Virus record (IMG/VR): IMGVR_UViG_3300042294_003246 | Length of the DNA: 64,000 nt | Strand: one strand, 5' to 3' | Source of the DNA: a virus | Taxonomy: Duplodnaviria; Caudoviricetes | In this document: piece after piece, positions 6,225-55,297 of the stretch | How the letters are laid out: each line of letters starts with the position of its first letter | How positions within the stretch are numbered: position 1 is the stretch's first letter | Made by a program: the position numbers and the translations under genes | The notes under the pieces: generated by a model | Told to the model about the DNA's origin: nothing | What the model saw: only the letters and a program-made list of their open reading frames with translations | Database searches by the model: none

Positions 6225-6248
6225 TATTTTTTTCATATATTTACCACT

Positions 6249-21585: not shown

Positions 21586-21702
21586 AGAAAACAGAGAACG
21601 AAATATGTCGTTGAAAATGGGGTGAAACACACTACAGGAACATCAACTGACTTACGATATAAAAGGGTTGAATATACCATTCAAAACGGAGAAAAAATTA
21701 AA
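21331..21702. CRISPR. CRISPR-like array: repeats at 21331, 21397, 21463, 21529 and degenerate 21598, 21667
   Basis: 36-nt repeats; spacers 30,30,30,33,33 nt; first three spacers 47-63% GC; array continues past the ORF stop. Confidence 0.7.
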
Positions 21703-21706
21703 TAAA

Positions 21707-22897
21707 ATGAATAATCCATCAGGAAAAAAATTAGAGAAACTTGTCTTTGGGTTGTTTGACCAAATGATTGAAGGTGCAGACAAGTATATTACAGAACAAG
21801 GTTCAACTTGGTTGATCTTTACCGAAGACAAAAGATGGGTGGTTGAATTCACAAAAGATAAAACTTTGTGGTTCAACTATAACCTATTTCAAAATGAGTT
21901 AGATCTAGTCAGTAAGGACTGCACTCAAGAAAGAGATTTGATCAAGAACTGGTTTGAATCAAGATTTTTGGGTATTGATGTGGTTGAGGAAAGTTTAAGC
22001 ACTGCTGGAAAACCATTGAAGGTTAAAGATACCATTCAAAATGGGGTGAAACACACTTGGGATTTAAATGCGGATGAAATTTCTGCAGTTAAAGACACCA
22101 TTCAAAATGGGGTAAGACACACCGATTATTTTGAATATACTAATAATACCTTAGTTGAAGATACCATTCAAGAGGGGGTGAAAGAAACCAATTACAAAAT
22201 TGGTTACCGAAAAGGTGGTATTGAAATCGCAATTCAAAATGGTGTAAAAGAAACACGAACATTCAATTCACCACCAATTAAATACATTGAAGACACCATT
22301 CAAAATGGGGTGAAAGAAACAACACCTAGTGGTTATTTGGGTTCAATGGAGATGAAAGGGAAAATAGTTCATCAAATTGAATCTCCAAAACAAAATAATG
22401 AGGTTGAAGACACCATTCAAAATGGGGTAAGACACACCGAAGTAGATGGGATGAGGATAAGGAGTGGGGTTAAGGACGCCATTCAAAATGGAGTAAAGGA
22501 CACTGTGTTAGCAAAAACGGATAGATTAGTCGGTATTGAAGACACCATTCAAAGTGGTATTAAAGACGTATCTGATAGACCATTCACATTTGGATCAAGT
22601 ATTGATGATGCCATTGAAAATGGTGTTAAAGAAACTAGAGAGGTAACATTCTTGAACCAAATGTTTATTGAAGAAACAATTGAAAAAGTTACACCAGATG
22701 GTGGAGTTGAAATTCCTTCTGATATGAAAGTTGGAACTGGATTGATGAATATGGTAAAAGAATTACGTGATAATGAATGGAGAACATTTGAACATCACGA
22801 TAATTGGATTAAAAACGAACATTATCCAAATCCAACATTTGAACAACAATTTGATACAGGTAATGCTTATAAAGAAATGTTAAAAACTAAAATTTAA
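21707..22897 (+). CDS. Paralogue of 9980 with ~10 repeat units and unrelated C-terminal tail
   Basis: Start placed at ATG 21707 (MNNPSGKK) by paralogy. Confidence 0.8.
   Translation: MNNPSGKKLEKLVFGLFDQMIEGADKYITEQGSTWLIFTEDKRWVVEFTKDKTLWFNYNLFQNELDLVSKDCTQERDLIKNWFESRFLGIDVVEESLSTAGKPLKVKDTIQNGVKHTWDLNADEISAVKDTIQNGVRHTDYFEYTNNTLVEDTIQEGVKETNYKIGYRKGGIEIAIQNGVKETRTFNSPPIKYIEDTIQNGVKETTPSGYLGSMEMKGKIVHQIESPKQNNEVEDTIQNGVRHTEVDGMRIRSGVKDAIQNGVKDTVLAKTDRLVGIEDTIQSGIKDVSDRPFTFGSSIDDAIENGVKETREVTFLNQMFIEETIEKVTPDGGVEIPSDMKVGTGLMNMVKELRDNEWRTFEHHDNWIKNEHYPNPTFEQQFDTGNAYKEMLKTKI
22022..22702. CRISPR. CRISPR-like array: repeats at 22022, 22088, 22154, 22220, 22286, 22403, 22469, 22535, 22601, 22667
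   Basis: Eight 30-nt spacers and one 81-nt; repeats degenerate toward the right. Confidence 0.65.
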
Positions 22898-22901
22898 AAC
22901 T

Positions 22902-23552
22902 ATGATGAAAATTGAAGCAAAAAAAGACGGTAAAGGAAACATTGTAATATCGGAAGATTCCTTTGAAATGATACTGGCTTGTTTAGACAATCAAAAATTT
23001 GTTGGTGAACAGCCACAAAATGGTGATTCGCTTTCGGTAGGCGAAGACAACTATTGGAAAGGACAAGAAGATATTCAAAACACTATTGACCATTATAATA
23101 GAGAATGTAGAAAAATATTACATCAAAAATATGTTTTAAGAACAGAATGTGATGGTTATTTTCTTGCAAAAAAATACGAACATCAAACAGAAGATGCTGA
23201 ATGGACTGGTGAAGATGTTGGATTAGTATATGAACTATTCAAAGATACAAGAATAATTTATAATGAAACAAGAGATTTATTACCATTGGATGGCTCGGAA
23301 AAAATTATAGAGGGAACTGAACCTATTGGTAAAACGAAAGATGGTTGGATTGCAGTTAAACCTGAACCAACACCTTGGTTAATTGAAAGACCATTAAGGT
23401 ATGATTATCAATATTTGACAATTTCAGAAGACGGTAAAACAAATAGAACTTGGAAACAAGATGAAATTAACAAAATTCAAGAATTATTTAATGGTGGGGG
23501 AGAAAAAAGAAAAGAAAAAGATATTACAGACGAACCTTCAATCGAAGACTAA
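22902..23552 (+). CDS. Hypothetical protein
   Basis: 216-aa ORF ending just before the first attC. Confidence 0.7.
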   Translation: MMKIEAKKDGKGNIVISEDSFEMILACLDNQKFVGEQPQNGDSLSVGEDNYWKGQEDIQNTIDHYNRECRKILHQKYVLRTECDGYFLAKKYEHQTEDAEWTGEDVGLVYELFKDTRIIYNETRDLLPLDGSEKIIEGTEPIGKTKDGWIAVKPEPTPWLIERPLRYDYQYLTISEDGKTNRTWKQDEINKIQELFNGGGEKRKEKDITDEPSIED

Positions 23553-23564
23553 ATGTAGTATTAC

Positions 23565-23658
23565 TGCTAACGTTGAAGCATTTGTGTCAGGCGGGCATAG
23601 ATGCAACTTAATATTAACCGCAAGCTGTCCGCCCGCTTGCACAAATGCAGTGTTAGCT
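23565..23658 (+). other. attC site 1
   Basis: TGCTAAC...GCATTTGTGTCAGGCGGGC / GCCCGCTTGCACAAATGC...GTTAGCT. Confidence 0.85.
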
Positions 23659-23669
23659 GCCGTTTAATT

Positions 23670-23876
23670 ATGGAAAGAACAATTAGAACATTAAAAGAAA
23701 TGCGTGAAAAGGCTGAAAGGTCTTTTATTGAAAACTCTATCATTGTCCACAGGGCAAGTTTGGACAGTCCAATACCCGATACAAAGTCGGATTTGGAAAT
23801 GATTATTGAGTTGAACCAAGCAATATCAATTTTGCAAAATGCTACTATGGCGAAGTCTGTCGTAAATGGCAGCTAA
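23670..23876 (+). CDS. Cassette 1 ORF (hypothetical)
   Basis: ATG 23670; TAA lies in the R'' box. Confidence 0.7.
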   Translation: MERTIRTLKEMREKAERSFIENSIIVHRASLDSPIPDTKSDLEMIIELNQAISILQNATMAKSVVNGS

Positions 23877-24001
23877 CGAAAAAGGCTTTGTGCAGGTGGG
23901 GATTTGGAACACGAAAGTTTCAAATCAGTACAAAAGCCTATTAGAATTACTGCTGTTTAATTTAGCAATTCAGCCCCACTTGCACAAAACCGATGTTACC
24001 T
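23871..24001 (+). other. attC site 2
   Basis: AGCTAAC...TTTGTGCAGGTGGGG / CCCCACTTGCACAAA...GTTACCT. Confidence 0.85.
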
Positions 24002-24058
24002 GCCGTTTTTTGTCGGTAACTCACAGATTTGATTTATAAACAATTAAAATAAAGTAAA

Positions 24059-24418
24059 ATGGAAAATTTAAAAGTAGTAAAAATTGATTCAGATTCATTA
24101 GAATTTGATAATGGAATGATTTTATTTTCAGACCACGACCAACAATGCTGTGAGCATCACTATTTGTCTTTGTCAGATTTGACATTGGATGATTTTAAAG
24201 GATTGGAATTTGATTTGTCAAATGATGATTTCTTTGAAAGAATAGAAGATTATGGAATAGCCTTAAAGCCTAAAAATGGACATCCTGTTAGAATACCTGG
24301 TTATGGCTCAAACAACGGCTACTATTCATCAAATCTTGCTTTGATTATAACTAATACTGATGGTCGTGGTGTATTCAAGCAATATGATATTACTGAATGT
24401 CAAGAATGGAACGATTAG
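24059..24418 (+). CDS. Cassette 2 ORF (conserved phage hypothetical)
   Basis: HDQQCCE...GYGSNNGYYS motif. Confidence 0.75.
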   Translation: MENLKVVKIDSDSLEFDNGMILFSDHDQQCCEHHYLSLSDLTLDDFKGLEFDLSNDDFFERIEDYGIALKPKNGHPVRIPGYGSNNGYYSSNLALIITNTDGRGVFKQYDITECQEWND

Positions 24419-24437
24419 CGGTCTGTCTTAAAATGGC

Positions 24438-24569
24438 AGGTAACGGTACTTGTGTAAATTTCAGTGCCGTAAAATTAGTATAAACTTTAAATTAAAAATA
24501 AAATGAAAAATCAAGTAGAAAATTATCAACAAAGCACTGCACAGGCATTGAATTTACACAATGTTAGCA
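24438..24569 (+). other. attC site 3 (contains start codon of next ORF)
   Basis: AGGTAAC...TTGTGTAAATTTCAGTGCC / GGCATTGAATTTACACAA...GTTAGCA. Confidence 0.85.
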
Positions 24570-24736
24570 GTAGTGCCAAAGGTGGACTTCGTAAAATTAA
24601 AGATGCAGAGCAACCTTGCCTACATCCTGACCATAACCCACCGATGCACATTTATTTAACAGCAGGAACTTATGAATATACCTGCCCTTCTTGTGGCAAG
24701 GTTACGACATTTACAGTACCATTGATTACGTTTTGA
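24503..24736 (+). CDS. Cassette 3 ORF (small CxxC protein), starts inside attC3
   Basis: CLHPDHNPP...CPSCG. Confidence 0.7.
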   Translation: MKNQVENYQQSTAQALNLHNVSSSAKGGLRKIKDAEQPCLHPDHNPPMHIYLTAGTYEYTCPSCGKVTTFTVPLITF

Positions 24737-24745
24737 TGGCATTAC

Positions 24746-24830
24746 TGCTAACGGTTTCAAATATGAGAAGTAAATTTTACCTATAAAAATTTGGAAAATC
24801 AAAATTTATTTCTTATATTTGTTGTTATAA
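24746..24830 (+). other. attC site 4
   Basis: TGCTAAC...CAAATATGAGAAGTAAATTTT / AAAATTTATTTCTTATATTTG...GTTATAA. Confidence 0.85.
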
Positions 24831-24870
24831 GTATGTATTATTTTTGTTTTACCTTATAAAAAAATTAAAT

Positions 24871-25146
24871 ATGGAAAATTATATTATTAAAACCCCTGAA
24901 ATAGAGTTTAATAAAGAAGATGTATCAGATTATAAGTTCTTAGGTACATTTAAAGATGTTGATAGTGGAATACCTAAAGTAATTGTATCAAAAATAGAAG
25001 ATACATTAAAAAATTTAGATTCTAATTTGAAAGTCACACCAATGATGGTTGACCCAGAAACTTTAGATATTGTATTCGGTATATTAGAAACAAATGAAGA
25101 AAGTGTTAAGTTAAAATATCATATAAAAATCACAAAACAAAAATAA
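24871..25146 (+). CDS. Cassette 4 ORF (hypothetical)
   Basis: ATG 24871. Confidence 0.65.
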   Translation: MENYIIKTPEIEFNKEDVSDYKFLGTFKDVDSGIPKVIVSKIEDTLKNLDSNLKVTPMMVDPETLDIVFGILETNEESVKLKYHIKITKQK

Positions 25147-25152
25147 TATTAC

Positions 25153-25273
25153 TTATAACGGTTGCAAATATAAGCAGTTATTAACGAAACTTAATTAAAA
25201 GAACAAAATTAAATATTAACCAACAACATTTATTTGGAAGTAATGAAATAATTGCTTATATTTGTTGTTATAA
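25153..25273 (+). other. attC site 5
   Basis: TTATAAC...CAAATATAAGCAGTTATT / AATAATTGCTTATATTTG...GTTATAA. Confidence 0.85.
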
Positions 25274-25285
25274 AACGTTATTTAT

Positions 25286-25486
25286 ATGGAAATAAAATTT
25301 TATTGGAACGGAAGTTTTGCTGGTACTAATCACAGTATGACTATAAATAAAAAAGAGATTAGATTAGGTGGAGTTGTTTCAAACGAAGATGAAGCAAAAC
25401 TGGAAGCAATTGAAATACTCAAAAGAGATTATAATATTGACTACAATGTTGATGAAATAAAATTTGAGTGGGGTGGTCGTTTATAA
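25286..25486 (+). CDS. Cassette 5 ORF (hypothetical)
   Basis: ORF fills cassette. Confidence 0.65.
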   Translation: MEIKFYWNGSFAGTNHSMTINKKEIRLGGVVSNEDEAKLEAIEILKRDYNIDYNVDEIKFEWGGRL

Positions 25487-25490
25487 TGTT

Positions 25491-25622
25491 TTATAACGGT
25501 TGAGTATAACCGAAGGTGGGGATTAAAAGTGCTAAACCCAGACTTACCTACAAAAGTAAATTAGAAGCACAATAACTGATTTTGGGAACTACCGCCCCAC
25601 TTTTGGTTATACTTTGTTAGCG
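25491..25622 (+). other. attC site 6
   Basis: TTATAAC...GTATAACCGAAGGTGGGG / CCCCACTTTTGGTTATAC...GTTAGCG. Confidence 0.85.
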
Positions 25623-25642
25623 GTATGTAAAATTTACGTATT

Positions 25643-25828
25643 ATGAAAGAAATAGAATTGTTAATCAGAAGAGAAAATGCTTTATCTAAGCAAAATTTGT
25701 TATACCAATTATTAGGTAAATTTGGTGATGATTTACCTAAACAGATACAAGATGCTGTAAGATTGATGGCAGAAGAAGAAGGTAGAGAGTATAACAAATT
25801 AGGTACTAAGGTTGCGGAACGGTTGTAG
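25643..25828 (+). CDS. Cassette 6 ORF (hypothetical)
   Basis: ORF fills cassette. Confidence 0.65.
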   Translation: MKEIELLIRRENALSKQNLLYQLLGKFGDDLPKQIQDAVRLMAEEEGREYNKLGTKVAERL

Positions 25829-25841
25829 TAAATTTTATTAC

Positions 25842-25924
25842 CGCTAACGTTTTGCGGCTTTGTGTCAGGCTGCGAAGCGTTGGCATTGAGCGGTCGGGCA
25901 GCTTGCACAAAACCGCTGTTATAC
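25842..25924 (+). other. attC site 7
   Basis: CGCTAAC...TTTGTGTCAGGCTGC / GCAGCTTGCACAAA...GTTATAC. Confidence 0.85.
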
Positions 25925-25960
25925 GCTGGCACGGTTAATTAACAACAAAATTTAATTGAA

Positions 25961-26338
25961 ATGAATATAGATGACTTATTTAAAATCGAACCACAAGAGC
26001 CATACAAGATGAGCCAAAAAGAGTTCGTTGAAAAAACAAAATCTGTTTTAGAAAAAATCTACAATGCTTATTCAAAAGGATGGCAAAGTAGGGTTTTGAG
26101 AGATGGAGAACACCCCGAAGAAAGTGTATGTGATAAATGCACTGGTTGTGGTGTTTTCTTGGAAAATGGAGAAGAAAGAGATTGTGTTCAAGATAGAGAA
26201 CAAGGAGATTGTTTTCACAGATTTTGTGATTACGAACAGGTAGGAATGGATTTAGAAACTCATCTTGCAGATATATCCGATTTACTTTCGGTAGATGAAA
26301 TTGTCAATACGGAGCAGAATGGTAGTGCTTGCGTATAA
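25961..26338 (+). CDS. Cassette 7 ORF (Cys-rich hypothetical)
   Basis: TAA in R'' box. Confidence 0.7.
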   Translation: MNIDDLFKIEPQEPYKMSQKEFVEKTKSVLEKIYNAYSKGWQSRVLRDGEHPEESVCDKCTGCGVFLENGEERDCVQDREQGDCFHRFCDYEQVGMDLETHLADISDLLSVDEIVNTEQNGSACV

Positions 26339-26386
26339 CGTCCGATGATAAACAATCGTTTTAATGTTGTTTATCATTTGTTATGT
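26333..26386 (+). other. attC site 8 (short type)
   Basis: GTATAACGTCCGATGATAAACAATCGTTTTAATGTTGTTTATCATTTGTTATGT. Confidence 0.85.
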
Positions 26387-26495
26387 GTAGTAATTTTGTG
26401 GGTGGAAATTCTTAATTTGAACTATTTATATATAAAATCTCAGATATATTCAGTTCTGAGATTTTATATATAAACTTAAAATAAAAGACAGAACT

Positions 26496-26768
26496 ATGAA
26501 AGAGAATAGAATTAAGAGATTTAAAAACTTCTTAAAAGAAGGAAAATCATATTTAGATGGTTCTGGTGAAAGAGGATTTTCACCGATGGAAATCAAACAA
26601 CTAAATATAGGTGATAAAATAACTTTTCACTTTAATAAATCTTTAATGGACGGTGTTATAACAGATAAAGAAGAACTTCAAAACGGAGACACTTTGTTTA
26701 GTATAGAAACAGAAAAAGGAGTATTGAAGAAAAGTCATAGAAATTTAGAAGTTTATAAAATTTATTAG
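26496..26768 (+). CDS. Cassette 8 ORF (hypothetical, IKRFKNFLKE leader)
   Basis: ORF preceded by TATTTAT motif. Confidence 0.7.
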   Translation: MKENRIKRFKNFLKEGKSYLDGSGERGFSPMEIKQLNIGDKITFHFNKSLMDGVITDKEELQNGDTLFSIETEKGVLKKSHRNLEVYKIY

Positions 26769-26790
26769 TAGGTGGGTAAAAAATTATTAC

Positions 26791-26924
26791 ACATAACGGT
26801 TGGGCGGTTGGCGTTCGTTGCCGACTTTGGAACACGAAACTTTAATTTAAAAACAAAATTTGATATGGAAAACAACACTTCAATTAACCACGAAAACGGC
26901 AATGACGCTAACCGCTTGTTAGCG
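26791..26924 (+). other. attC site 9 (contains start codon of next ORF)
   Basis: ACATAAC...GCGGTTGGCGTTCGTTGCCG / CGGCAATGACGCTAACCGC...GTTAGCG. Confidence 0.85.
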
Positions 26925-27146
26925 GCTGGTGCGGATTTAATCGGAAAGTTTTACGAAATGTTAAATCTTGATGATTCCGTAATGCACCGTTTTAAAATAA
27001 AGCATGTACGCACAGAAACGACTCCTGCTATTGACCATTCCGATGGCAGTCATTCACCAAGCAAAACACATGTTTTGGTTTCGGCAGAAGGTTCAGGGTG
27101 GTTTCGTTTGTATGGCGGTAAAACTGATAGAGTGGTGGAGGAGTAG
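26865..27146 (+). CDS. Cassette 9 ORF, starts inside attC9
   Basis: ATG 26865, MENNTSINHENGNDANRLLAAG. Confidence 0.65.
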   Translation: MENNTSINHENGNDANRLLAAGADLIGKFYEMLNLDDSVMHRFKIKHVRTETTPAIDHSDGSHSPSKTHVLVSAEGSGWFRLYGGKTDRVVEE

Positions 27147-27153
27147 CACTTGC

Positions 27154-27207
27154 CGCTAACGTCCGATGATAAACAATCGTTTTAATGTTGTTTATCATTT
27201 GTTATAA
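27154..27207 (+). other. attC site 10 (short type)
   Basis: Same core as attC8. Confidence 0.85.
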
Positions 27208-27224
27208 GTTGTTTTTTATTATAT

Positions 27225-27641
27225 TTGAATATGGTAGATTTAATAGTAAAGGAAATTGATGACTTTTATATGAATGAATTCAATCTTTTAAAAGAAGAAG
27301 TTCAAAAAAACATAAAAGTTGAGATTATAGATAGTTCAAAATTTGGGGATATAGGTGGGAGATTTAATTTTTTGAAACAGATAATATATGTAAATTCAGA
27401 ACAATCTAATGAGAATATGTTTCTAACACTTCTACATGAATATGGACATTTTCTAACTTTTAGAGATTATATCTATGTATATAATGTTTGTCCTTACGAA
27501 TATGGTAGAAATGTATTAAAACGAGAATTAGGTGCGTATTATCATGGGTGGAAATTCATAAAATCTAACTCAATTGGAGTTTCAAAAAATAAATGGAGAG
27601 AACACCATATTCAAATATTAAAAGATTATGAGATATTATGA
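27225..27641 (+). CDS. Cassette 10 ORF, HExxH metallopeptidase-like (ImmA/IrrE-like)
   Basis: LTLLHEYGH and downstream E..AY motif. Confidence 0.65.
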   Translation: MNMVDLIVKEIDDFYMNEFNLLKEEVQKNIKVEIIDSSKFGDIGGRFNFLKQIIYVNSEQSNENMFLTLLHEYGHFLTFRDYIYVYNVCPYEYGRNVLKRELGAYYHGWKFIKSNSIGVSKNKWREHHIQILKDYEIL

Positions 27642-27648
27642 AAATAAC

Positions 27649-27722
27649 TTATAACGTTTTGCACATACACGCTGTGAGCGTTGTATTGAGGGCAGGGAAA
27701 TAGCGTGTATGTGCTGTTATAG
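27649..27722 (+). other. attC site 11
   Basis: TTATAAC...GCACATACACGCT / AGCGTGTATGTGC...GTTATAG. Confidence 0.85.
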
Positions 27723-27774
27723 GCTGTATTTAAAAGTTTTTAGCGAAGGAATTAACAATTAAAATAAACATAAA

Positions 27775-28332
27775 ATGAAAAAAGTAAAAGAAGCATACGA
27801 TGAAATTTTAAAAGCATTACATAAACACAGAGAAATTTGCGTTTTTGATGTAAGTGAATTGGAAAGAAAAGCCAAAACACATTTATTTGGACTTGAACTG
27901 AAAGAAGTTTACGGGCTAAATATTGACTCTAAACAAATTAAAAATATGGATTGGGTTAGGTTTGGAGAATATAGGGCGATTGGGATGTGGGGCGAAAAAC
28001 ACAGAAGAACTATAATTTGGAGCGTTGATGGAATACAGCCCGAAGATGAAATGTTATTACAAATATGCTTTCCAACTGGTGCATACATTTTTGGAGAAGA
28101 TTATGCCGTAAATTTCTTTCAAAAGTTTTGGCTTGAATTAAAATCATTTACGCCTGATTACATAGACGAAGTAAATCTCGGATTATATTGGAAATTAGAA
28201 AACGCAAAAGATGTTTTTAACTCGTTTGATTTGCTTTTAAAAAAGTACTACGAACTTAATAAAGAAGATGCGAAACAAAGGAGAATTGAAAAGATGAAAA
28301 AAGAACTTGAGCAACTTGAAAACTCTAAATAG
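27775..28332 (+). CDS. Cassette 11 ORF (hypothetical)
   Basis: 185-aa ORF. Confidence 0.75.
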   Translation: MKKVKEAYDEILKALHKHREICVFDVSELERKAKTHLFGLELKEVYGLNIDSKQIKNMDWVRFGEYRAIGMWGEKHRRTIIWSVDGIQPEDEMLLQICFPTGAYIFGEDYAVNFFQKFWLELKSFTPDYIDEVNLGLYWKLENAKDVFNSFDLLLKKYYELNKEDAKQRRIEKMKKELEQLENSK

Positions 28333-28362
28333 TGCAATGGCAAAAAAACTTTTAAATATTGC

Positions 28363-28416
28363 CTATAACGTCTGATGATAAACAATCGTTTTAATGTTGT
28401 TTATCATTTGTTATAT
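28363..28416 (+). other. attC site 12 (short type)
   Basis: Same core as attC8/10 with one C>T change. Confidence 0.85.
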
Positions 28417-28492
28417 TCAGTTATTTTTTCAATTATTTCAAAAAACCGTTTTTTTTTTATTAATATATAGATTATAAAAAAAAATTAAAACT

Positions 28493-28825
28493 ATGAGAAA
28501 ATTAAAATTTTTAAAAACATTTGAATCTCTTTTGGAAGATGATTTCTCTAAAGAAAATATATTGGACAATATTTTAAGTAAAATAGAGAAAGAATTTATG
28601 AATTCACCTATTAAATTTACAGAAATACTTAAAAGAGGAGATAATAGTATCTACATTAAATATGAAATTGACTGGGAGATGCCAGAGACTATGGAAGATT
28701 GGTGGGATTATGAGGAATTTATAGAAAAACATTTAAATAAATTATCAGATAATTTGAATATATTTGAATATAATTATGATTTAACTAGTATTAGAATATA
28801 TCCCCGTAAAAATAAAAATAATTGA
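28493..28825 (+). CDS. Cassette 12 ORF (hypothetical, LKTFESLLE leader)
   Basis: ORF fills cassette. Confidence 0.7.
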   Translation: MRKLKFLKTFESLLEDDFSKENILDNILSKIEKEFMNSPIKFTEILKRGDNSIYIKYEIDWEMPETMEDWWDYEEFIEKHLNKLSDNLNIFEYNYDLTSIRIYPRKNKNN

Positions 28826-28955
28826 ATATAACGGTCGCAGATATGCCCAGTTTGGGATTAAATAGTATAAACTTTAAATTAATATAAAATGAACAAAGAA
28901 GAACAAAATTTGAATAACGCAGAGAACCCCAAATTGGATATATCTGATGTTAGCG
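28826..28955 (+). other. attC site 13 (contains start codon of next ORF)
   Basis: ATATAAC...CAGATATGCCCAGTTTGGG / CCCAAATTGGATATATCTG...GTTAGCG. Confidence 0.85.
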
Positions 28956-29125
28956 GTAGTTATTTATGGATTCCTGTAACGGAGCGACTACCTGAAACCG
29001 AAGATTACTATGCAGTTAGATTTGAAAACGGCATTGAAGATGAAAAACCTTTTAGGATTAGACCAAAGAAAAATATCTTCGGTTTTATGACTATGGAGAA
29101 AGTTACACATTGGGCGGTTCTATAA
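28889..29125 (+). CDS. Cassette 13 ORF, DUF551-like, starts inside attC13
   Basis: WIPVTERLPE...VTHWA. Confidence 0.7.
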   Translation: MNKEEQNLNNAENPKLDISDVSGSYLWIPVTERLPETEDYYAVRFENGIEDEKPFRIRPKKNIFGFMTMEKVTHWAVL

Positions 29126-29129
29126 TTAC

Positions 29130-29184
29130 CGCTAACGTTTTGCGTGTATAAAATCGTTTTAATGTTTTATACACGCTGTTAGCA
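29130..29184 (+). other. attC site 14 (terminal)
   Basis: CGCTAAC...GCGTGTATAAAA / TTTTATACACGC...GTTAGCA. Confidence 0.85.
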
Positions 29185-29404
29185 GTAGTACGGTAATTAA
29201 CCACAAATGCTCATTCGGAGAACTGAACCTTTTTCTTTTCTTTTTTGTGGGTTGGACAAAATAAATTTGAAAAATTTAAAAATAAATAATATGAAATTAG
29301 AAACAATTGAAAATGGAGTTAAAGATGGGATTTGATAAAAAAATATTAGAAAATGATGGGTTGTTGGATGTTGAATTAGATAATGGGGTTTACAAATATA
29401 GTCT

Positions 29405-29512
29405 ATGACGTTACTTGAAACATATGTACATGTGTTTGGGATTTCTTTAACAATAATATTATTGGGAGGATATCTTACATACAGATACTTTAAGAAAAGA
29501 AAGAAAAAATAA
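29405..29512 (+). CDS. Small membrane peptide (35 aa)
   Basis: MTLLETYVHVFGISLTIILLGGYLTYRYFKKRKKK; diverged copy near 20300-20410. Confidence 0.5.
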   Translation: MTLLETYVHVFGISLTIILLGGYLTYRYFKKRKKK

Positions 29513-30144
29513 TGGCTTACATTGAACATAATTTTTATCCTTTAAAAGTTTGGGTTAGAGACGAATACTTTTATCAGGGTAAAAATGGAAAGGGTAATTT
29601 CACTCAAGGGATTATTATTTCTGTGAGATGTATGCCAGGTCAAGCGGCCTTATTTCAAGTTCTATTAGATAATGGGGTTATGAGAGATAAACTCCCGTCA
29701 CATGCACTACTAACAAAACCTGAATTACCAAATCCAGATCTTCCATTTCATTATTTACAATTATGGAATTGTTTTTCATATAATTTCACACTTCTTAAAT
29801 TAAATTTTGTTTCAGGTGGACCTGTTGAAGTTTATATGAAAGATAGAAAATTTTATTCGGGTAAATATTTTGCCACTATAAATTGGGGTTCAAATGATAT
29901 TAATACTGATATCACATTGTCCGAAGATCCAATGGAACATAAATCCCATCACATAATATTATTAGATAACGGACAAATTGCCTTACAACCTAATAATAGA
30001 ATTAAATGGTCCGAACCAAGTTTTGTGACCAAACCCTTTCCTGAAAAACCAGATTACCTCGTTTGTAATGAATTTTATAATGTGGAAGACCATGAAAAAT
30101 GGCACACAGAAGACAGTGAGAGAATGTTTTATGATAACGAATAA
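29512..30144 (+). CDS. Conserved phage hypothetical (MAYIEHNF family)
   Basis: 210-aa ORF; truncated duplicate at 20410. Confidence 0.75.
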   Translation: MAYIEHNFYPLKVWVRDEYFYQGKNGKGNFTQGIIISVRCMPGQAALFQVLLDNGVMRDKLPSHALLTKPELPNPDLPFHYLQLWNCFSYNFTLLKLNFVSGGPVEVYMKDRKFYSGKYFATINWGSNDINTDITLSEDPMEHKSHHIILLDNGQIALQPNNRIKWSEPSFVTKPFPEKPDYLVCNEFYNVEDHEKWHTEDSERMFYDNE

Positions 30145-30194
30145 TAACATATCTCATTGGGCGATCAACGCCATAATACACAAATTCATTTATT

Positions 30195-30416
30195 ATGAAA
30201 ACACTTGATTTACATGGAGTTAAACACGCTGACGTTGCCAAGTTAATGGATCAATTTATTTGGGAACAGATGAATAAAAAATCTAAGGAGATTGAAATCA
30301 TCACCGGCATAAGCCAAACGATGAAAGATGTGGTCATCAAAAATCTAAAAGATTATGAGTTCACCTATAACGAAGCGTGGAACAACCCTGGTAAGTTGAT
30401 AGTAAGTTTAGTTTAG
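30195..30416 (+). CDS. Smr/MutS2-like small domain protein
   Basis: TLDLHG...IITG...NPG. Confidence 0.65.
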   Translation: MKTLDLHGVKHADVAKLMDQFIWEQMNKKSKEIEIITGISQTMKDVVIKNLKDYEFTYNEAWNNPGKLIVSLV

Positions 30417-30433
30417 TGAAAAAAAAGTGTGAT

Positions 30434-30462
30434 CCCCCGGTTGAATAAGTCGGGGGTTTTTT
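30434..30462 (+). terminator. Intrinsic terminator
   Basis: CCCCCGG...TCGGGGG then T run. Confidence 0.7.
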
Positions 30463-30475
30463 CTATCTTTGTGTT

Positions 30476-32212
30476 ATGTTGCAAGTAGAAGGTAAAACAT
30501 TTCATAAGTTTATTGAGTTAAAGTCTTATAAAACGCAGACTTTCAAAAACTCCTGTCCTATAGAGTATGGACCTGTATATCGTAACGGGAATAATGAATG
30601 TATTATAAAAAAAACAGGTAGATTTTATTACGACGAACTCTTTTTGTCTGAAGAAGACTATGTTAAAAATTTTGGAAACATATGGGCTCAAGTAGACTTT
30701 ACAAGACAACGAGTTTTTATTGAAGAAGGGGAAGACTCAATTTCAATAAAGGCTCAGTATTACCATAAATGGAGAATAGTAGGAAAAAGATTCTTTGTGG
30801 TAAGAAAACACACAAACTACCTATCCTTCAATTTCAAAACCAAAATGTTCTACACAGGTACATTCAAAGGAAAGAATAAAACAAAGATTGGAAACTCCAT
30901 GAAGGTTGATCCAAGTTTTAGAGCTATTAGAGATTTAGAATACACTTTGAAAATTCATAATTCTGTTAGACCTGAAAGTTATTTTTATTTTTTTTTAGAA
31001 AAAATATGGGATAGACTTGGACTTGAAAACACACAAAACTTTGAGACAAAAAATCCTTTTACCCATTATAGTTTAACAAAGTATTTGATCAAAGGTGTAA
31101 AAATACCAAACAATTGGATTCAATACACCGACACATTTGTCCCAATCAAAACTCTTAGAAGTTGTGATATGAACTTAGTTGATGGGGTTATGAAAATGTT
31201 AAAATTAAAAGGGTCAAAAATTAAAAGAATTCTTAATGAAATCCCAAATGTCAATTTTGATAGACTTACAGGTCTCTACTATTTGTTAGGAATTGATAGA
31301 TTCAATAAACTACCTGATAAAATATTCGATTATCAATTCTCAAATGATAGATATGGTAACCCCATTGAAGAAAATCCTGCGGGAGGACAATATTGGTATT
31401 GTACCCATCAGGACTATTTTAAAGATTTTAAAAGAAAGTTTCCTGAGTTAACTAATAAAGAAAAAGATAGAATCCTAACCCTTGGTGAACATCTTGATGA
31501 TGCGGTATTTCATACACTTATTGAACATTTAGAGTTCAAAAAGAAACTAAATGAACTTGGTGAAGATGTTAAGTTGAAATTTCAAAATAGAAGTACCTTC
31601 AATTTAGAACACGAAGAGTTTAGTAGATTACTTACTTCATACACAAGAGGTGAGGTTGAAAGATATTATGGTGAAATTGATACTTTAGAAACACCTATTG
31701 AACACGAGGGTGAAACATATTATCCTGTACTATTGAGAAAAACACTAGATTACGAGAAAGAATCACAACACCAACATAATTGTGTAAGAACATATTGTGA
31801 AAGACCCGATTCAATAATCTTCTCAATTCGAAAAGGTTCTATAAATGGTCAAGAAAGGATTACTGTTGAATACCAATTTAGAAAAAATGAAATTCTTAAT
31901 GTTCAAGAAAGAGCAAGGTTTAATGAGTTACCAAATGAAACATTTTCTCATGTTGCAAAAATTCAGTTGGCAAATATTAATTTAGAATATAAACTTGGGA
32001 CACTTAAACTTCCAAAGTTGACTAAAAGATATCGTAATGGTAAAATAACGGAACAGTTCTCGACTTTTGAAATTGACTTTGATAATGGAACAAGAGTTAT
32101 TCCTATGACACCAAGATGGAATTATGAAACACTTGAGTTCAATTCATGGCAAAACGAAATTTTAGATATGCAACAAGTTCCTGTGAATGATTTTTGGGAT
32201 GAATTACCATAA
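30476..32212 (+). CDS. PcfJ-like domain protein
   Basis: C-terminal YEKESQHQHNCVRTY...ITVE...VQER; TATCTTTG promoter at 30464. Confidence 0.7.
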   Translation: MLQVEGKTFHKFIELKSYKTQTFKNSCPIEYGPVYRNGNNECIIKKTGRFYYDELFLSEEDYVKNFGNIWAQVDFTRQRVFIEEGEDSISIKAQYYHKWRIVGKRFFVVRKHTNYLSFNFKTKMFYTGTFKGKNKTKIGNSMKVDPSFRAIRDLEYTLKIHNSVRPESYFYFFLEKIWDRLGLENTQNFETKNPFTHYSLTKYLIKGVKIPNNWIQYTDTFVPIKTLRSCDMNLVDGVMKMLKLKGSKIKRILNEIPNVNFDRLTGLYYLLGIDRFNKLPDKIFDYQFSNDRYGNPIEENPAGGQYWYCTHQDYFKDFKRKFPELTNKEKDRILTLGEHLDDAVFHTLIEHLEFKKKLNELGEDVKLKFQNRSTFNLEHEEFSRLLTSYTRGEVERYYGEIDTLETPIEHEGETYYPVLLRKTLDYEKESQHQHNCVRTYCERPDSIIFSIRKGSINGQERITVEYQFRKNEILNVQERARFNELPNETFSHVAKIQLANINLEYKLGTLKLPKLTKRYRNGKITEQFSTFEIDFDNGTRVIPMTPRWNYETLEFNSWQNEILDMQQVPVNDFWDELP

Positions 32213-32241
32213 TTTTATTATATTTGTAAAAAACATATAAA

Positions 32242-32523
32242 ATGACAGAAAGACAACAAGAACTTTTGATTGAAATGGTTACCAAAATTGATGAAGCCAG
32301 AACTTATAATCTAATTTCAGGTGTCTTGACATTCTTGTGGTTATTTGAATTCATATACTTAATTTTTTGGGATAACAATCTCAATATAACTTTATATTTT
32401 ACTATTTGGTTGGTTTGTATGGTTGGTTGGGTTCACATGGATAGAAAGTTTAAAAAGAGTATGAAAGAATATAACGAATTAAAAGACGAATACATAACAG
32501 AATTTGGAGATGAAAACATATAA
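32242..32523 (+). CDS. Membrane protein
   Basis: Two hydrophobic helices. Confidence 0.65.
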   Translation: MTERQQELLIEMVTKIDEARTYNLISGVLTFLWLFEFIYLIFWDNNLNITLYFTIWLVCMVGWVHMDRKFKKSMKEYNELKDEYITEFGDENI

Positions 32524-33091
32524 ACAACTACCGATCCCTGAAGACACGGCTTGGGATAGATCAACATTATACGGGAGATTACATTGGAGAATTAGAGATT
32601 TTATAACCAGTTGTCATAACTTAATCAAGTGGTTTCCAACTATTTGGAACGATAGAGATTGGGATGATAGTTTTATCTTAAAGATTCTACAAAAGAAAAT
32701 TGAATTTCAAAGAAAAGAACTTGTTAATTCCAACCGACACATGAGAATTGAACTTGATAATCGTGATATGACTTTAGCTCTTAATTTACTTGAAAGAGTA
32801 AATGAAGAATACTACCAATTGGAGTGTATGGATTATTGGGATAACGATATGATATTCGACGATGTTCCTGATAAACCTGGATTTAAATCAATTGATTTTG
32901 AGGAAAAGTGGGAAAAATATGATGAATACCTTTCTAAATATCCTTCTTCAGTTCGTGCGGTTGTTAAAGAACATGGAGAACAAGATGACAAAAAGCGTTT
33001 ATGTTTATTGGTTTCCCATTATAATCATAATAAAGCAAATAAACTACTATTCAGAGTGCTTGAGGAAAGACTTGCATTTTGGTGGGATTAA
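32504..33091 (+). CDS. Conserved phage hypothetical
   Basis: WFPTIWNDRDWD...FWWD. Confidence 0.7.
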   Translation: MEMKTYKQLPIPEDTAWDRSTLYGRLHWRIRDFITSCHNLIKWFPTIWNDRDWDDSFILKILQKKIEFQRKELVNSNRHMRIELDNRDMTLALNLLERVNEEYYQLECMDYWDNDMIFDDVPDKPGFKSIDFEEKWEKYDEYLSKYPSSVRAVVKEHGEQDDKKRLCLLVSHYNHNKANKLLFRVLEERLAFWWD

Positions 33092-33279
33092 AAAATAAAA
33101 TTATGGATAAAAGAATGATTCAAGGACAGTTAATGAATGAGCATCGTTTGATATCAAACGAGATTGCCGATATCAAAGCATCAAGTTTTGAATTAACTAA
33201 AGAACAAAAACAAAGAATCTCTGAACTTGAAATTAAATTAAAAGTAATTGCTCAAAAGTTATATACACTATACCTATAG
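33079..33279 (+). CDS. Hypothetical coiled-coil protein
   Basis: ORF. Confidence 0.55.
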   Translation: MVGLKNKIMDKRMIQGQLMNEHRLISNEIADIKASSFELTKEQKQRISELEIKLKVIAQKLYTLYL

Positions 33280-33282
33280 TTT

Positions 33283-33534
33283 ATGGATGGATATTTGATA
33301 TTTTTCGAAAATCAATGGGTGGTAAAAAATTTATCCCAAAATGATAATAAAGTTTATCCAATATGGGAAGAAAACCAAGAATGGATCAATAAACCATCAA
33401 CAAAAAAAATACTTAAAGATGGTGTTGAGGTTGTATTTGACATCATAACTTCTGGTGAATATAGTGAAGAAAAACAACAAATTATTAAAACTGATTTTGC
33501 TAAAATTAAGGCAATTTATTTTGAAAGTTTATGA
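33283..33534 (+). CDS. Hypothetical protein
   Basis: ORF. Confidence 0.6.
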   Translation: MDGYLIFFENQWVVKNLSQNDNKVYPIWEENQEWINKPSTKKILKDGVEVVFDIITSGEYSEEKQQIIKTDFAKIKAIYFESL

Positions 33535-34707: not shown

Positions 34708-35556
34708 ATGATTATCTATAAAATAACTAACAATCTTAATAATAAAATCTATATCGGTCAAGATAGAAATAATAACCCATCTTACTTCGGAAGTGGTAAA
34801 AAAATACAAAGAGCCATAAAAAAATATGGTAAAGAAAATTTTGTAAAAGAAATTTTAGAAGAGTGTGTTGATGAAAATCATATGAATGAAAGAGAAGTTT
34901 ACTGGATATTAAAATATAATAGTCAAGATAGAAAAATTGGTTATAATATAAGTAATGGTGGTAAAGAGGGTGACAGACAAATAGGTCAAGACATTACTAA
35001 AAACGGAATTTATAATTATTGGGTTGAAAAACACGGTCAGGAAGAAGCTGATATTAGAAAAAAACAACAAATTGAAAAAATCATAAAACATAACAAGGAA
35101 AACGGCACAGAACTAACTAAAAAAGGTCGTTATAGTTTATGGTTAGAAAAATATGGTAAAGAAGAGGCCGATAGAAGACATTTTGAATGGAGATTAAAAA
35201 TATCACAACATCAGCAATATAAATTAGAGAATGGGTGGAAGCATACTGACGAAGCCAAAGAAAAAATATCAAAGGCGGGTAAAGGTAGGAAACTATCTGA
35301 AGAAACAAAAAATAAAATGAGAAAACCTAAACCAAAAGGGTTTTCAGAAAAACTATCAAAATTGAAAAAAGGTGTGTCAACAGGATCATCAAAAAAAAGA
35401 TTACAGGTTTTACAATTTGATTTAAATGGTAATTTACTTTATACTTGGGATAGTATAACAGAAGTTGAAAAACAATTAAAAATATTCAATATATCTGCGG
35501 TATGTAAAGGAAAACAAGAAACCGCTGGTGGTTATAAATGGGAATATAAAAAATAA
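34708..35556 (+). CDS. GIY-YIG homing endonuclease with NUMOD3/NUMOD1 motifs
   Basis: IIYKITN..N.KIYIGQ; KHTDEAKEKIS; AGGYKWEY. Confidence 0.88.
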   Translation: MIIYKITNNLNNKIYIGQDRNNNPSYFGSGKKIQRAIKKYGKENFVKEILEECVDENHMNEREVYWILKYNSQDRKIGYNISNGGKEGDRQIGQDITKNGIYNYWVEKHGQEEADIRKKQQIEKIIKHNKENGTELTKKGRYSLWLEKYGKEEADRRHFEWRLKISQHQQYKLENGWKHTDEAKEKISKAGKGRKLSEETKNKMRKPKPKGFSEKLSKLKKGVSTGSSKKRLQVLQFDLNGNLLYTWDSITEVEKQLKIFNISAVCKGKQETAGGYKWEYKK

Positions 35557-35561
35557 CGAAA

Positions 35562-36656
35562 ATGAATAATTTAGACAAACAATACCAAGATTTACTTCAA
35601 GATATTTTGGATAATGGGGTAAAAAAAGAAACAAGAAATGGAGGAACCATCAGTGTTTTTGGTCGTCAGATCAGACACAACATGAGTGAAGGATTTCCTT
35701 TACTCACAACCAAGAAAATGTTTTGGAAAGGAATTGTAACTGAATTGATTTGGTTCCTACGTGGTGATACGAACATTAAATACCTTATAGATAATGATTG
35801 TCATATTTGGGACGGTGATGCTTATAAGAACTACGGTCAAAAGATTATCTCTGGAGGTTACCAAAATTTAGTTGCAATAGGATGGCCTAGTACACAAGAA
35901 GAGTTCATCAACAAAATCAAAACAGATGATGAGTTTGCTAAGAAGTGGGGAGATTTAGGTCCTGTGTATGGTAGACAATGGAGAGCGTGGGGTGGCTTTG
36001 ATAAAAAACCTTCAGGATGGAATCATGGGGCTGTTACTCATTTTTCTGAAGTGCCTAAACTTGACCAGATAAAAAATCTTATTCACGACCTTAAAACAAA
36101 TCCTGATAGCCGAAGATTGATGGTTACAGCTTGGAACCCATCGGAATTGGACCAGATGACTCTTCCACCTTGTCATTATGGATTTCAAATTTATACAAGA
36201 GAGTTCAGTTTACAGGAAAGAAAAGACATATATGATAAATCGTCTTATGTTAAAGATATTTTTCCGACAGATGAAAATGGATGGAATAGTTTATTCAATG
36301 ATTGTAGTATACCAACCAGGGCAATCTCTTTAATGTTCAATATGAGAAGCAATGATGTTCCGCTCGGGCTTCCATTTAATTTGGCTTCATATGGGTTACT
36401 TTTGATGATATTGGCAAAAGAGGTTAATATGGTACCTGAAGAATTGATTTCAAATATGGGAGATTGTCACATATATCTAAATCAAATTGATGGTGTGAAA
36501 GAACAATTAACAAGAGAACCATTTGAATTACCAACTCTTAATCAGTTCCCCACCTATGAAGGTTCAAGACCATCAATAGAATCTTATACTATTGGCGATT
36601 TCACACTTAAAAATTACAAATCACACCCAAGTATAAAAATGCCACTTTCTAACTAA
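35562..36656 (+). CDS. thyA: Thymidylate synthase
   Basis: FPLLTTKK, LGPVYGRQWR, LPPCH, RSNDVPLGLPFN, GDCHIY. Confidence 0.97.
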   Translation: MNNLDKQYQDLLQDILDNGVKKETRNGGTISVFGRQIRHNMSEGFPLLTTKKMFWKGIVTELIWFLRGDTNIKYLIDNDCHIWDGDAYKNYGQKIISGGYQNLVAIGWPSTQEEFINKIKTDDEFAKKWGDLGPVYGRQWRAWGGFDKKPSGWNHGAVTHFSEVPKLDQIKNLIHDLKTNPDSRRLMVTAWNPSELDQMTLPPCHYGFQIYTREFSLQERKDIYDKSSYVKDIFPTDENGWNSLFNDCSIPTRAISLMFNMRSNDVPLGLPFNLASYGLLLMILAKEVNMVPEELISNMGDCHIYLNQIDGVKEQLTREPFELPTLNQFPTYEGSRPSIESYTIGDFTLKNYKSHPSIKMPLSN

Positions 36657-36711
36657 CTTTTTATTATTTGAGGATATTTATATTAAAGGATAAACCTTAA
36701 AGTAAATCAAT

Positions 36712-51944: not shown

Positions 51945-51945
51945 A

Positions 51946-52656: not shown

Positions 52657-52662
52657 TTCTCT

Positions 52663-53364: not shown

Positions 53365-53365
53365 G

Positions 53366-55269: not shown

Positions 55270-55297
55270 AATAATATTTTTTCTTATCTTTGTTTTA

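Follow-up and report, generated by a model that had tools for sequence, protein, structure and literature searches.

Integrons are built from single-ORF cassettes bounded by imperfect-palindrome sites (attC) with AAC/GTT cores. Crossover in the core leaves the two ends of each cassette complementary to one another and implies a circular intermediate, and a tyrosine recombinase gene lies at one end of the array by a non-hairpin attI site. One strand of the site folds better, and arrays that contain no enzyme exist too. The system described here shares these traits, with a putative attI-like site where integrons have attI. Bacteroidetes have next to no complete integrons or integron integrases (PMC9024848). 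CALINs of virulent phages, in which attC-like sites flank small genes and methyltransferases, were described by Qi et al. 2023 (PMC9892861). In that study, the sites were regarded as parts of integrons on which bacterial IntI acts; neither a phage recombinase dedicated to them nor an attI-like site or an inverted polarity was reported. The hyperplastic regions of large T4-type phages contain small accessory ORFs separated by conserved stem-loop motifs, the PeSLs, which mark the borders of swapped modules (PMC2839356, PMC4122927). These promoter-terminator motifs are thought to act through homologous recombination, and they have no cassette-specific complementary ends, fixed 4-bp crossover core or associated recombinase. 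The CTX-type IMEX and the dif modules of Acinetobacter plasmids use a Xer-family enzyme. XerCD recombines the folded single-stranded site of CTX phage. These elements depend on host XerC/D and dif-like 28-bp sites, integrate at chromosomal dif, and are not organised as arrays of hairpin-bounded single-gene cassettes.

Here we analyse a cassette array of a large lake-water phage. Taken as a whole, the comparisons are in our judgement likely to reflect an integron-like cassette system, separate from integrons proper, that occurs in Bacteroidota and their phages. We found no paper that describes it, and it is apparently undescribed as a system.

Architecture of the Array

The window (the whole 64-kb stretch of DNA that was analysed) has a phage-like gene content. 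Its exact aminotransferase, in the same gene order, is encoded on contigs 246,519 and 297,378 bp long, which supports the earlier view that this is a jumbo phage. Fourteen TAACG...TGTTA hairpin sites, all on the + strand, span 23568-29181 at a density of 14 sites in 5.6 kb. They measure 48-128 bp from core to core, or 54-134 bp once 3 nt are added per side, and all 14 have the attC-type form of an imperfect inverted repeat with AAC...GTT cores and a variable centre. A detector that used the two pentamers and inner-stem pairing alone, leaving the flanks unused, returned the 14 sites and one false positive, and shuffled windows gave 0-1 matches each (both strands). The extra match, at 30368-30476, is an ordinary terminator and not a site of the array. 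One ORF lies between each pair of sites, which gives 13 co-oriented single ORFs of 61-185 aa. The cargo consists of small accessory proteins, most of which have no assigned function. The ORFs of cassettes 3, 9 and 13 start inside the upstream hairpin, and those of cassettes 1 and 7 stop at the TAA within TAAC. The original prediction had listed 14 sites of 54-134 bp, 13 single co-oriented ORFs between them and two stops in the R'' box, and all three counts stand. The 48-bp hairpins (sites 8, 10 and 12) are nearly identical to one another. The sites and cassettes are as follows, with C_x denoting an opened cassette that surrounds the array.

23568..23655, + strand, site 1, 88 bp; left flank is part of opened cassette C_x
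23652..23877, + strand, cassette 1, ORF 23670-23876, 68 aa; stop is the TAA of TAAC
23874..23998, + strand, site 2, 125 bp; hairpin and cassette 2 both shared with L078
23995..24444, + strand, cassette 2, ORF 24059-24418, 119 aa, DUF7448; 88% identity to L078, homology stops at TAAC
24441..24566, + strand, site 3, 126 bp; start codon of cassette 3 ORF within loop
24563..24752, + strand, cassette 3, ORF 24503-24736, 77 aa, zinc-ribbon-like; start within site 3
24749..24827, + strand, site 4, 79 bp; 94% identity to L136 9086-9174
24824..25159, + strand, cassette 4, ORF 24871-25146, 91 aa
25156..25270, + strand, site 5, 115 bp
25267..25497, + strand, cassette 5, ORF 25286-25486, 66 aa; 88% identity to L017, homology from core to core (-1..0)
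25494..25619, + strand, site 6, 126 bp; shared with L136 together with cassette 6
25616..25848, + strand, cassette 6, ORF 25643-25828, 61 aa; shared with L136
25845..25921, + strand, site 7, 77 bp
25918..26339, + strand, cassette 7, ORF 25961-26338, 125 aa, Cys-rich; stop is the TAA of TAAC
26336..26383, + strand, site 8, 48-bp class, CGTTTTAATG loop
26380..26797, + strand, cassette 8, ORF 26496-26768, 90 aa
26794..26921, + strand, site 9, 128 bp; start codon of cassette 9 ORF within loop
26918..27160, + strand, cassette 9, ORF 26865-27146, 93 aa; start within site 9
27157..27204, + strand, site 10, 48-bp class
27201..27655, + strand, cassette 10, ORF 27231-27641, 136 aa, weak match to IrrE/M78-like metalloprotease; shared with L168 and L047
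27652..27719, + strand, site 11, 68 bp
27716..28369, + strand, cassette 11, ORF 27775-28332, 185 aa
28366..28413, + strand, site 12, 48-bp class
28410..28832, + strand, cassette 12, ORF 28493-28825, 110 aa
28829..28952, + strand, site 13, 124 bp; start codon of cassette 13 ORF within loop
28949..29136, + strand, cassette 13, ORF 28889-29125, 78 aa; 91% identity to a core-less copy in the 462-kb phage LR756500
29133..29181, + strand, site 14, 49 bp; hairpin of opened C_x, 3' arm matches the hairpin preceding C_x in L136

Several of the hairpin loops hold A/T-rich leaders and start codons. Rfam gave no match in the window.

Cassette Ends and the Crossover Point

Each cassette had been predicted to carry ends that complement one another, and this holds for 13/13 cassettes. 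The own-end flanks match at 9-11 of 12 positions per cassette, except for cassette 4 with only 7/12; the end pairing of cassette 10 was read by eye. Most non-own flank pairs match at 1-7 of 12 positions, and the two flanks of any single site pair at the 4-bp core alone. Own-end pairing in the window reaches 15 bp, with a G.T fixed at position 11. Among 447 unique viral-locus cassettes, 70-90% have a Watson-Crick pair at positions 5-10 and 12-15, compared with 28-55% for random partners; 341 of the cassettes carry G.T at position 11, and complementarity drops towards the random level beyond position 15. Because the ends of each cassette are complementary over 15 bp, they carry the footprint of site-specific recombination via a circular form.

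This footprint bears on the reading that the hairpins are mainly regulatory RNA or DNA (terminators, processing sites or promoter-bearing spacers) and that shuffling occurs by homologous recombination as with PeSLs (PMC2839356, PMC4122927). Such a role would fit the G.U-type bias of the sense strand, which suits RNA folding, and the leaders and start codons in the loops; the nearly identical 48-bp hairpins could serve as homology patches, and the array's own entry into the backbone was a homology-driven crossover (see below). However, homologous exchange from repeat to repeat can neither give rise to nor preserve 15-bp complementary ends that are specific to each cassette and share a fixed mismatch. 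Nor can it explain why homology stops precisely at the 4-bp cores when the hairpins differ, or why an invariant motif junction lies by the recombinase gene, as described below. PeSL-type borders would be set by homologous exchange and show no site-specific footprint, whereas the borders seen here are core-exact and the ends complementary. We regard the PeSL-like reading as unlikely.

Polarity and Folding Strand

Cassette families found beside different neighbours suggest which hairpin belongs to which ORF. When the downstream neighbour differs, the downstream hairpin is kept in 1 of 12 families; when the upstream neighbour differs, the upstream hairpin is kept in 4 of 7 (6 of 7 at >=0.69 identity), these 7 and 12 being few independent families. 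Judged from these comparisons, a hairpin and the ORF that follows it move as a pair, and the polarity is inverted relative to integrons. The sense strand is the more stable one in 392 of 459 hairpins.

These results have to be set against the possibility that the array is a classical integron fragment (CALIN), whose true attC sites are moved by a host or phage IntI. The AAC/GTT cores, the imperfect palindrome with its unpaired spacer and the own-end complementarity are all hallmarks of attC. In addition, HattCI called a site of this hairpin family, in Polaribacter phage P12002L, an attC, and IntI1 recombined other phage-borne sites (PMC9892861). Yet of the six phage sites assayed with IntI1, only P12002L_attC1, which belongs to the hairpin family seen here, gave no recombinants (Qi et al. 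2023; PMC9892861). An integron attC lies 3' of its ORF, and its antisense (bottom) strand is the one that folds and recombines; here, the hairpin lies 5' of the ORF, the sense strand folds better, and the start of an ORF may fall within the site. The outer stem spans 15 bp and has a conserved G.T, while integrons have a 7-bp R box.

Recombinase and attI-Like Site in Relatives

Arrays of the same type of site occur on many viral contigs as well as on chromosomes of Bacteroidota, and classical integrons are almost absent from these hosts. The enzyme that adjoins the arrays is a Xer-type tyrosine recombinase of ~268 aa. Its catalytic motifs are conserved and it aligns with XerA from end to end. 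TIGR02249 matches it in two pieces only, skipping model positions 205-255, and in comparison with VchIntIA (2a3v) the phage enzyme has 29 residues where IntI has 77. Thus, the ~48-residue insertion specific to IntI (I2 helix region) is absent from the recombinase of the array relatives. Viral loci with a recombinase of >=47% identity and upstream DNA present carry 1-16 co-oriented sites upstream of the recombinase gene; downstream of it and on the opposite strand there are almost none. In 59/59 unique loci, the array terminates in (T/C)AAC plus TAYYATATRT, a conserved non-hairpin motif that resembles attI and lies 40-50 nt upstream of the recombinase start codon. In phages, unlike in integrons, the recombinase gene is co-oriented with the cassettes. 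Two bacterial chromosomes have it at the same array end on the opposite strand, so the geometry is not uniform.

The window itself has no tblastn match to a tyrosine recombinase. A profile of 82 diverse recombinase homologs reached a best E of 0.31 in the window, versus 3e-124 for the positive control, in agreement with the original prediction that no tyrosine recombinase occurs there. The attI-like motif is likewise absent from the 64-kb window, outside of which lie ~180-230 kb of the phage genome. Five larger relatives have neither the recombinase nor the 48-bp site class. The phage itself seems to be without the recombinase of the system, and recombinase and attI-like site are probably absent from this phage lineage as well as from the window. 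With 14 clustered sites and no tyrosine recombinase in 64 kb, the array resembles a CALIN, i.e., at least two clustered sites with no integrase nearby. The label applies in a descriptive sense only, because the sites differ from attC in the other respects given above. The window has the hairpins, the 15-bp own-end stem with G.T and the co-oriented small cassettes of the Xer-type system and contains neither its motif nor its ~268-aa recombinase, so it is best placed as an enzyme-less member of that system.

The original prediction was right about a mobile cassette array with integron-type logic, about the jumbo phage and about the absence of a recombinase nearby. The IntI-type system that it also proposed is not supported: 59/59 relatives pair the array with a Xer-type enzyme without the IntI insertion, and polarity and better-folding strand are inverted. 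We consider the integron fragment highly improbable. A borrowed enzyme is plausible; rather than an IntI, it would come from a co-infecting phage or from a platform of this same system on a Bacteroidota chromosome.

The Xer-like nature of the array-linked enzyme also raises the question of whether the sites are substrates of the housekeeping XerC/D of the host, as in dif modules and CTX-type IMEX, the phage Xer-like gene being accessory or unrelated. Complete phages such as mymlan6-1, which have sites and no tyrosine recombinase at all, would be in line with this. Against it, the arrays are tightly linked to a dedicated recombinase clade, which is common among viral contigs and has no match above 48% identity in the species genomes searched, and a conserved attI-like site abuts the recombinase gene. 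Dependence on host XerC/D is in our view quite unlikely.

Proposed Cassette System

The steps of the mechanism that we propose for the Xer-type cassette system are all deduced from sequence. The mobile unit would comprise a hairpin site and the ORF that follows it, beginning at the C of a TAAC core and ending with the TAA of the next core. In the circular unit, the ends would pair to give a 15-bp outer stem that stacks on the hairpin and has the G.T at position 11. The ~268-aa Xer-type recombinase without the I2 insertion may exchange strands at TAA|C, with the folded sense strand as its probable substrate. Circles would then be inserted at another hairpin site or at the conserved attI-like site by the recombinase gene. 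An array that has no enzyme of its own would be filled and shuffled in trans, either by a co-infecting phage or from a platform on the host chromosome. We give an even chance to the stronger view that Bacteroidota and their phages run a system of their own, autonomous and sister to the integron, in which an I2-less Xer-type recombinase joins folded sense-strand hairpins with an attI-like site. If so, unrelated phages, jumbo phages included, could trade accessory and counter-defence genes during co-infection, and single-strand cassette recombination would have been either invented independently or retained here in an ancestral state.

Entry of the Array Into the Phage Backbone

A crossover between the intact end of a backbone gene (L117) and the intact start of the C_x ORF (L136) yields two reciprocal junctions, and the window has both. 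The features involved are as follows.

22672..22686, + strand, left copy of the crossover microhomology, AGAAACAATTGAAAA; from junction alignment
22672..23571, + strand, 3' part of C_x; last 74 codons fused onto backbone gene 21668-22897, plus ORF 22902-23552; 93.5% identity to L136 10000-10820
29178..29313, + strand, 5' part of C_x; conserved leader module and first ORF codons; 95% identity to L136 9863-10014 and 91% to phage mymlan6-1, from or just before the GTTA core
29299..29313, + strand, right-hand copy of this microhomology; the displaced 3' end of the backbone gene comes next

The junction alignments show a Campbell-type integration, over ~15 nt of microhomology, in which a circular molecule carrying C_x entered backbone gene 21668-22897 at its 3' end. 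The whole array lies within one opened cassette, C_x. The integration placed one hairpin site in the backbone, and this site now holds 13 further cassettes. The closest backbone relatives have no array. As backbone relatives have neither array nor enzyme, the array of the window was probably filled in trans.

A fixed gene order and content across relatives had been named as evidence against shuffling. Relatives vary in both, and together with the array-free state of the closest backbone relatives this removes the objection. Cassettes 2, 6, 10 and 13 recur in other contexts. G001 and the window have backbones almost without DNA similarity, and between them C_x is 93-95% and the hairpins 94-100% identical. 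Joints at sites in metagenome contigs have short sides, and excision in this phage is not proven by them. One observation does not fit a strict single crossover side: in mymlan6-1, the C_x leader is shared from GTTA on and is preceded by a different hairpin.

Hairpin sites and single-gene cassettes

Fourteen sites are found on the + strand of the window between 23568 and 29181. Each runs from TAACG to TGTTA around an imperfect inverted repeat, and the sites measure 48-128 bp from core to core (TAAC to GTTA). Sites 8, 10 and 12 are 48-bp hairpins that are near-identical to each other. The sites separate 13 single ORFs of 61-185 aa, all co-oriented. The site detector considered only the pentamer at each end and base pairing between the inner arms, and ignored the flanks. 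It returned all 14 sites and one false positive from the window, and 0-1 matches from each shuffled window (both strands). The coordinates, the detector and the shuffled controls thus confirm the 14 sites and 13 single co-oriented ORFs of the original prediction. The false positive, a 15th candidate at 30368-30476, was rejected because it looks like an ordinary terminator. Its source is a G+C-rich hairpin followed by a T-run (30431-30462) after the ORF at 30195-30416, as in an ordinary intrinsic terminator.

The bases after each GTTA are complementary to those before the next TAAC in 13/13 window cassettes, and the flanks of any single site pair with each other over the 4-bp core only. The pairing spans 15 bp and always has G.T at position 11, a stronger form of the pairing of cassette ends that had been predicted. 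This rule holds well beyond the window. Across 447 unique cassettes, Watson-Crick pairs occur at positions 5-10 and 12-15 in 70-90% of cases vs 28-55% when partners are drawn at random, 341/447 have a sense-strand G.T at position 11, and complementarity drops towards the random level past position 15. Because the flanks were unused in detection, the own-end complementarity is independent evidence. The TAA of TAAC serves as the stop codon of cassettes 1 and 7. An Rfam scan of the window gave no match and a tRNA scan of the window found none. Short motifs recur in the loops of the ~125-bp hairpins: TTTGGAACACGAAA in sites 2 (23900-23925) and 9 (26826-26850) and AGTATAAACTTTAAATTAA in sites 3 (24474-24500) and 13 (28862-28888). 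These may be expression signals travelling with the cassettes.

A Xer-type recombinase and an attI-like junction in related loci

More than 113 IMG/VR stretches, from contigs of 4-465 kb, contain the exact 34-mer of the 48-bp hairpin; among ~185,000 prokaryotic species genomes it turns up in a single 1.4-kb scrap. The viral loci carry co-oriented arrays of up to 17 detected sites. Two named phages carry detected sites as well: the cultured Flavobacterium phage mymlan6-1, itself enzyme-less, has seven and Polaribacter phage P12002L has three, and in both phages the sites flank methyltransferase genes.

Each of three large array-bearing contigs encodes a tyrosine recombinase of 266-268 aa. Its best family match is XerA. 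The two proteins align over their whole length (XerA structure 4a8e), and the catalytic motifs are kept. The integron-integrase model matches it in two pieces only, with model positions 205-255 skipped, and against VchIntIA (2a3v) 29 residues of the phage enzyme stand opposite 77 IntI residues. The IntI-specific insertion is therefore absent from the phage enzyme. Viral contigs hold 96 relatives of this recombinase at 50-100% identity, and its best matches in species genomes reach at most 48%. A mechanism of the HUH/IS200 type was dropped, as no such gene accompanies the arrays, whereas the tyrosine recombinase does.

Essentially every viral recombinase locus with upstream DNA has 1-16 co-oriented sites upstream of the gene, and almost none are found downstream of it or on the other strand. 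In 59/59 unique loci the last cassette ends in its own complementary flank and (T/C)AAC. In all 59 the next element is no hairpin: the conserved motif TAYYATATRT stands there, 40-50 nt upstream of the recombinase start codon. On sequence grounds, we read this junction as the putative counterpart of attI, the integron insertion site. The window has neither element: the attI-like motif was not found in it, and the recombinase is absent, in agreement with the earlier statement that the window holds no tyrosine recombinase.

In prokaryotic assemblies, a looser pattern of the 48-bp class has at least 120 matching stretches, nearly all from Bacteroidota, and some of these contain real arrays. The complete chromosome CP006772 has nine such sites, all forward, over 57 kb, ending 382 bp from a recombinase homolog, and a Fluviicola chromosome has a similar arrangement.

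Chromosomal arrays with a recombinase homolog
G005, CP006772.1 2249436-2307458: sites and recombinase homolog on opposite strands; the array ends beside the homolog
G006, CP121319.1 ~2528806-2557384: sites and recombinase homolog on opposite strands; the array ends beside the homolog

The homologs at these two arrays are at 42-51% identity, their strand arrangement is unlike that of the phage loci, and the arrays extend over tens of kb. A phage-only system is rejected: the exact 34-mer hardly occurs outside viral contigs, but sites of this class are also found in Bacteroidota chromosomes, so these chromosomes share the system with the phages of Bacteroidota.

Insertion of cassette C_x into the backbone

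The flanks at the two ends of the array, before site 1 and after site 14, are complementary to each other. In the comparison locus L136, window pieces 29162-29313 and 22672-23492 are contiguous and form one ordinary cassette, C_x.

Window features at the insertion
21668-22897: backbone gene entered by C_x
22672-23571: 3' part of C_x
23568-29181, + strand: array
29178-29313: 5' part of C_x, with site 14 as its hairpin

Alignments place both reciprocal crossover products in the window, within ~15 nt of microhomology. The partners were the 3' end of the backbone gene, intact in locus L117, and the 5' end of the C_x ORF, intact in L136. Such reciprocal junctions are the signature of a Campbell-type insertion of a circular molecule, and are the most direct evidence in this analysis for circular cassette DNA. 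The C_x insertion put one hairpin site into the backbone, and 13 further cassettes are now found at that site; alternatively, the inserted circle may already have carried the 13 cassettes. The array is absent from the closest backbone relatives, and five larger relatives, of which three are at least 93% complete, have neither the recombinase nor the 48-bp site class. C_x is also found at 93-95% identity in G001, whose backbone is otherwise unrelated, and cassettes therefore move between unrelated phages. Joints in metagenome contigs cluster at the cores, but their sides are 20-35 nt long and contig-derived, and they were not counted as evidence of excision.

A block with a phrog_3704 ferredoxin-like gene, a PcfJ-like gene and their neighbours lies downstream of the array (window 29500-33530). 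In the backbone relatives L118, L124 and L125 the same block lies upstream of the 21.0-22.7 kb gene, so a second rearrangement took place, with the insertion or after it.

The cassette unit and its polarity

Polarity was scored over cassette families in a de-duplicated, side-specific test. Where the downstream neighbour differs, the downstream hairpin is common to 1/12 families, and that one belongs to the ubiquitous 48-bp class; where the upstream neighbour differs, the upstream hairpin is common to 4/7 families (6/7 at an identity of at least 0.69), and both family numbers are small. Homology of window cassettes 2, 6, 10 and 13 with other loci reaches into the upstream hairpin, and homology of window cassettes never extends more than 8 nt beyond the downstream core. 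Three ORFs (cassettes 3, 9 and 13) have their start codon within the upstream hairpin, and the better-folding strand is the sense strand in 392/459 hairpins. Hairpin sharing, ORF starts and sense-strand folding together indicate that the mobile unit is a hairpin and the ORF that follows it; exchange would fall at TAA|C. One misfit to a single crossover side is the C_x leader, which is common to the window and mymlan6-1 behind a different hairpin.

This ~90-nt leader follows the GTTA of site 14 and is 91-95% conserved (window 29178-29270, L002, which is mymlan6-1, 3501-3586, and L136 9879-9970). It is found in the 38.5-kb mymlan6-1, where it is annotated as a 38-aa CDS, and in L136 and L203, always at a cassette start, and may be a promoter or 5' leader. 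A copy of the cassette 13 ORF, 91% identical, lies at 5998-6241 of the 462-kb uncultured phage LR756500.1 and extends to the N-terminal codons located in site 13. A 3-nt deletion removes its GTTA core, and it has no recognisable hairpin arms and no downstream site. It looks like a fossilised cassette.

Relation to integrons

Seventeen CALINs (attC clusters without an integrase) have been reported in phages, and IntI1 recombines 5/6 phage-borne sites; no dedicated recombinase was reported (Qi et al., 2023; PMC9892861). The sole failing site with IntI1 is P12002L_attC1 (Qi et al., 2023; PMC9892861). It is identical to a site detected here (NC_028924 30008-30056) and belongs to the TAACG...TGTTA hairpin family. 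Complete integrons are almost absent from Bacteroidetes (IntegronFinder 2.0; PMC9024848). The polarity of integron cassettes is opposite to that of a unit of hairpin and downstream ORF, although the integron order of array, attI-like site and recombinase is matched when read along the folded strand. The nearest phage precedent is the PeSL cassettes of T4-type phages, which differ in that they rest on homologous exchange.

The original prediction was of IntI-type integron shuffling. The comparison with integrons fits the working of the array; membership of the integron family fails on the enzyme, the polarity and the one published functional test, the IntI1 assay. We place the window array, as a member without the enzyme, in an integron-like system that occurs in Bacteroidota and in their phages, and we infer every step of its mechanism from sequence comparison. 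A literature search found no paper on a cassette system of this recombinase and these hairpins, and it appears to be undescribed as a system. Standard integron finders would call such arrays CALINs at most, so the system is probably under-counted.

In the current view, integron integrases became able to recombine single-strand hairpins when they acquired the I2 helix (PMC7790495). Widespread attC-like hairpins with an attI-like site and a Xer-type enzyme that lacks this helix would test that view, and a Xer-type cassette system would offer a natural comparison for integron origins. For phage biology, it would supply a site-specific mechanism for fast turnover of small accessory genes. The window adds a concrete route by which an enzyme-less phage obtains a landing site, namely Campbell-type insertion of a cassette circle at short microhomology.

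Phage setting and cargo

The gene content of the window is phage-like, with co-oriented genes, thyA between GIY-YIG endonucleases, an endolysin, an RNA ligase and a Y-family polymerase. Contigs of 246,519 bp and 297,378 bp encode the exact window aminotransferase in the same gene order, which bears out the claim of a jumbo phage genome. One 107-kb contig is 100% identical to window 51511-64000. Neither IMG/VR nor the GenBank phage set yielded an exact copy of the window DNA. The array is present at 82-100% of sampled words in 24 metagenome runs (2016-2024) of lake or freshwater origin. A Bacteroidota host is indicated by one protein, which has a T9SS sorting domain. This 1346-aa protein (1984-6024) combines Ig-like (CHU_C-associated) domains with the type IX secretion C-terminal sorting domain and is unusual among phage genes.

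Most cassette proteins are small and functionally uncharacterised. The cassette 2 protein matches DUF7448, and weak matches link cassette 3 to a zinc ribbon, cassette 7 to a Cys-rich region and cassette 10 to IrrE/M78-like metalloproteases. Methyltransferases are common cargo in relatives. By analogy with them the cargo may act in host takeover or counter-defence, and, because they are common, the exchanged genes may include ones for counter-defence, also where the phages have unrelated backbones.

The thymidylate synthase gene (35562-36656) lies between GIY-YIG homing-endonuclease genes (34708-37545). Its product may carry an insertion, as its 364 aa exceed the 266-position Pfam profile. At 61230-62743 a Peptidase_S24 (UmuD/LexA-like) gene overlaps the Y-family DNA polymerase gene and forms a umuDC-like pair in a phage.
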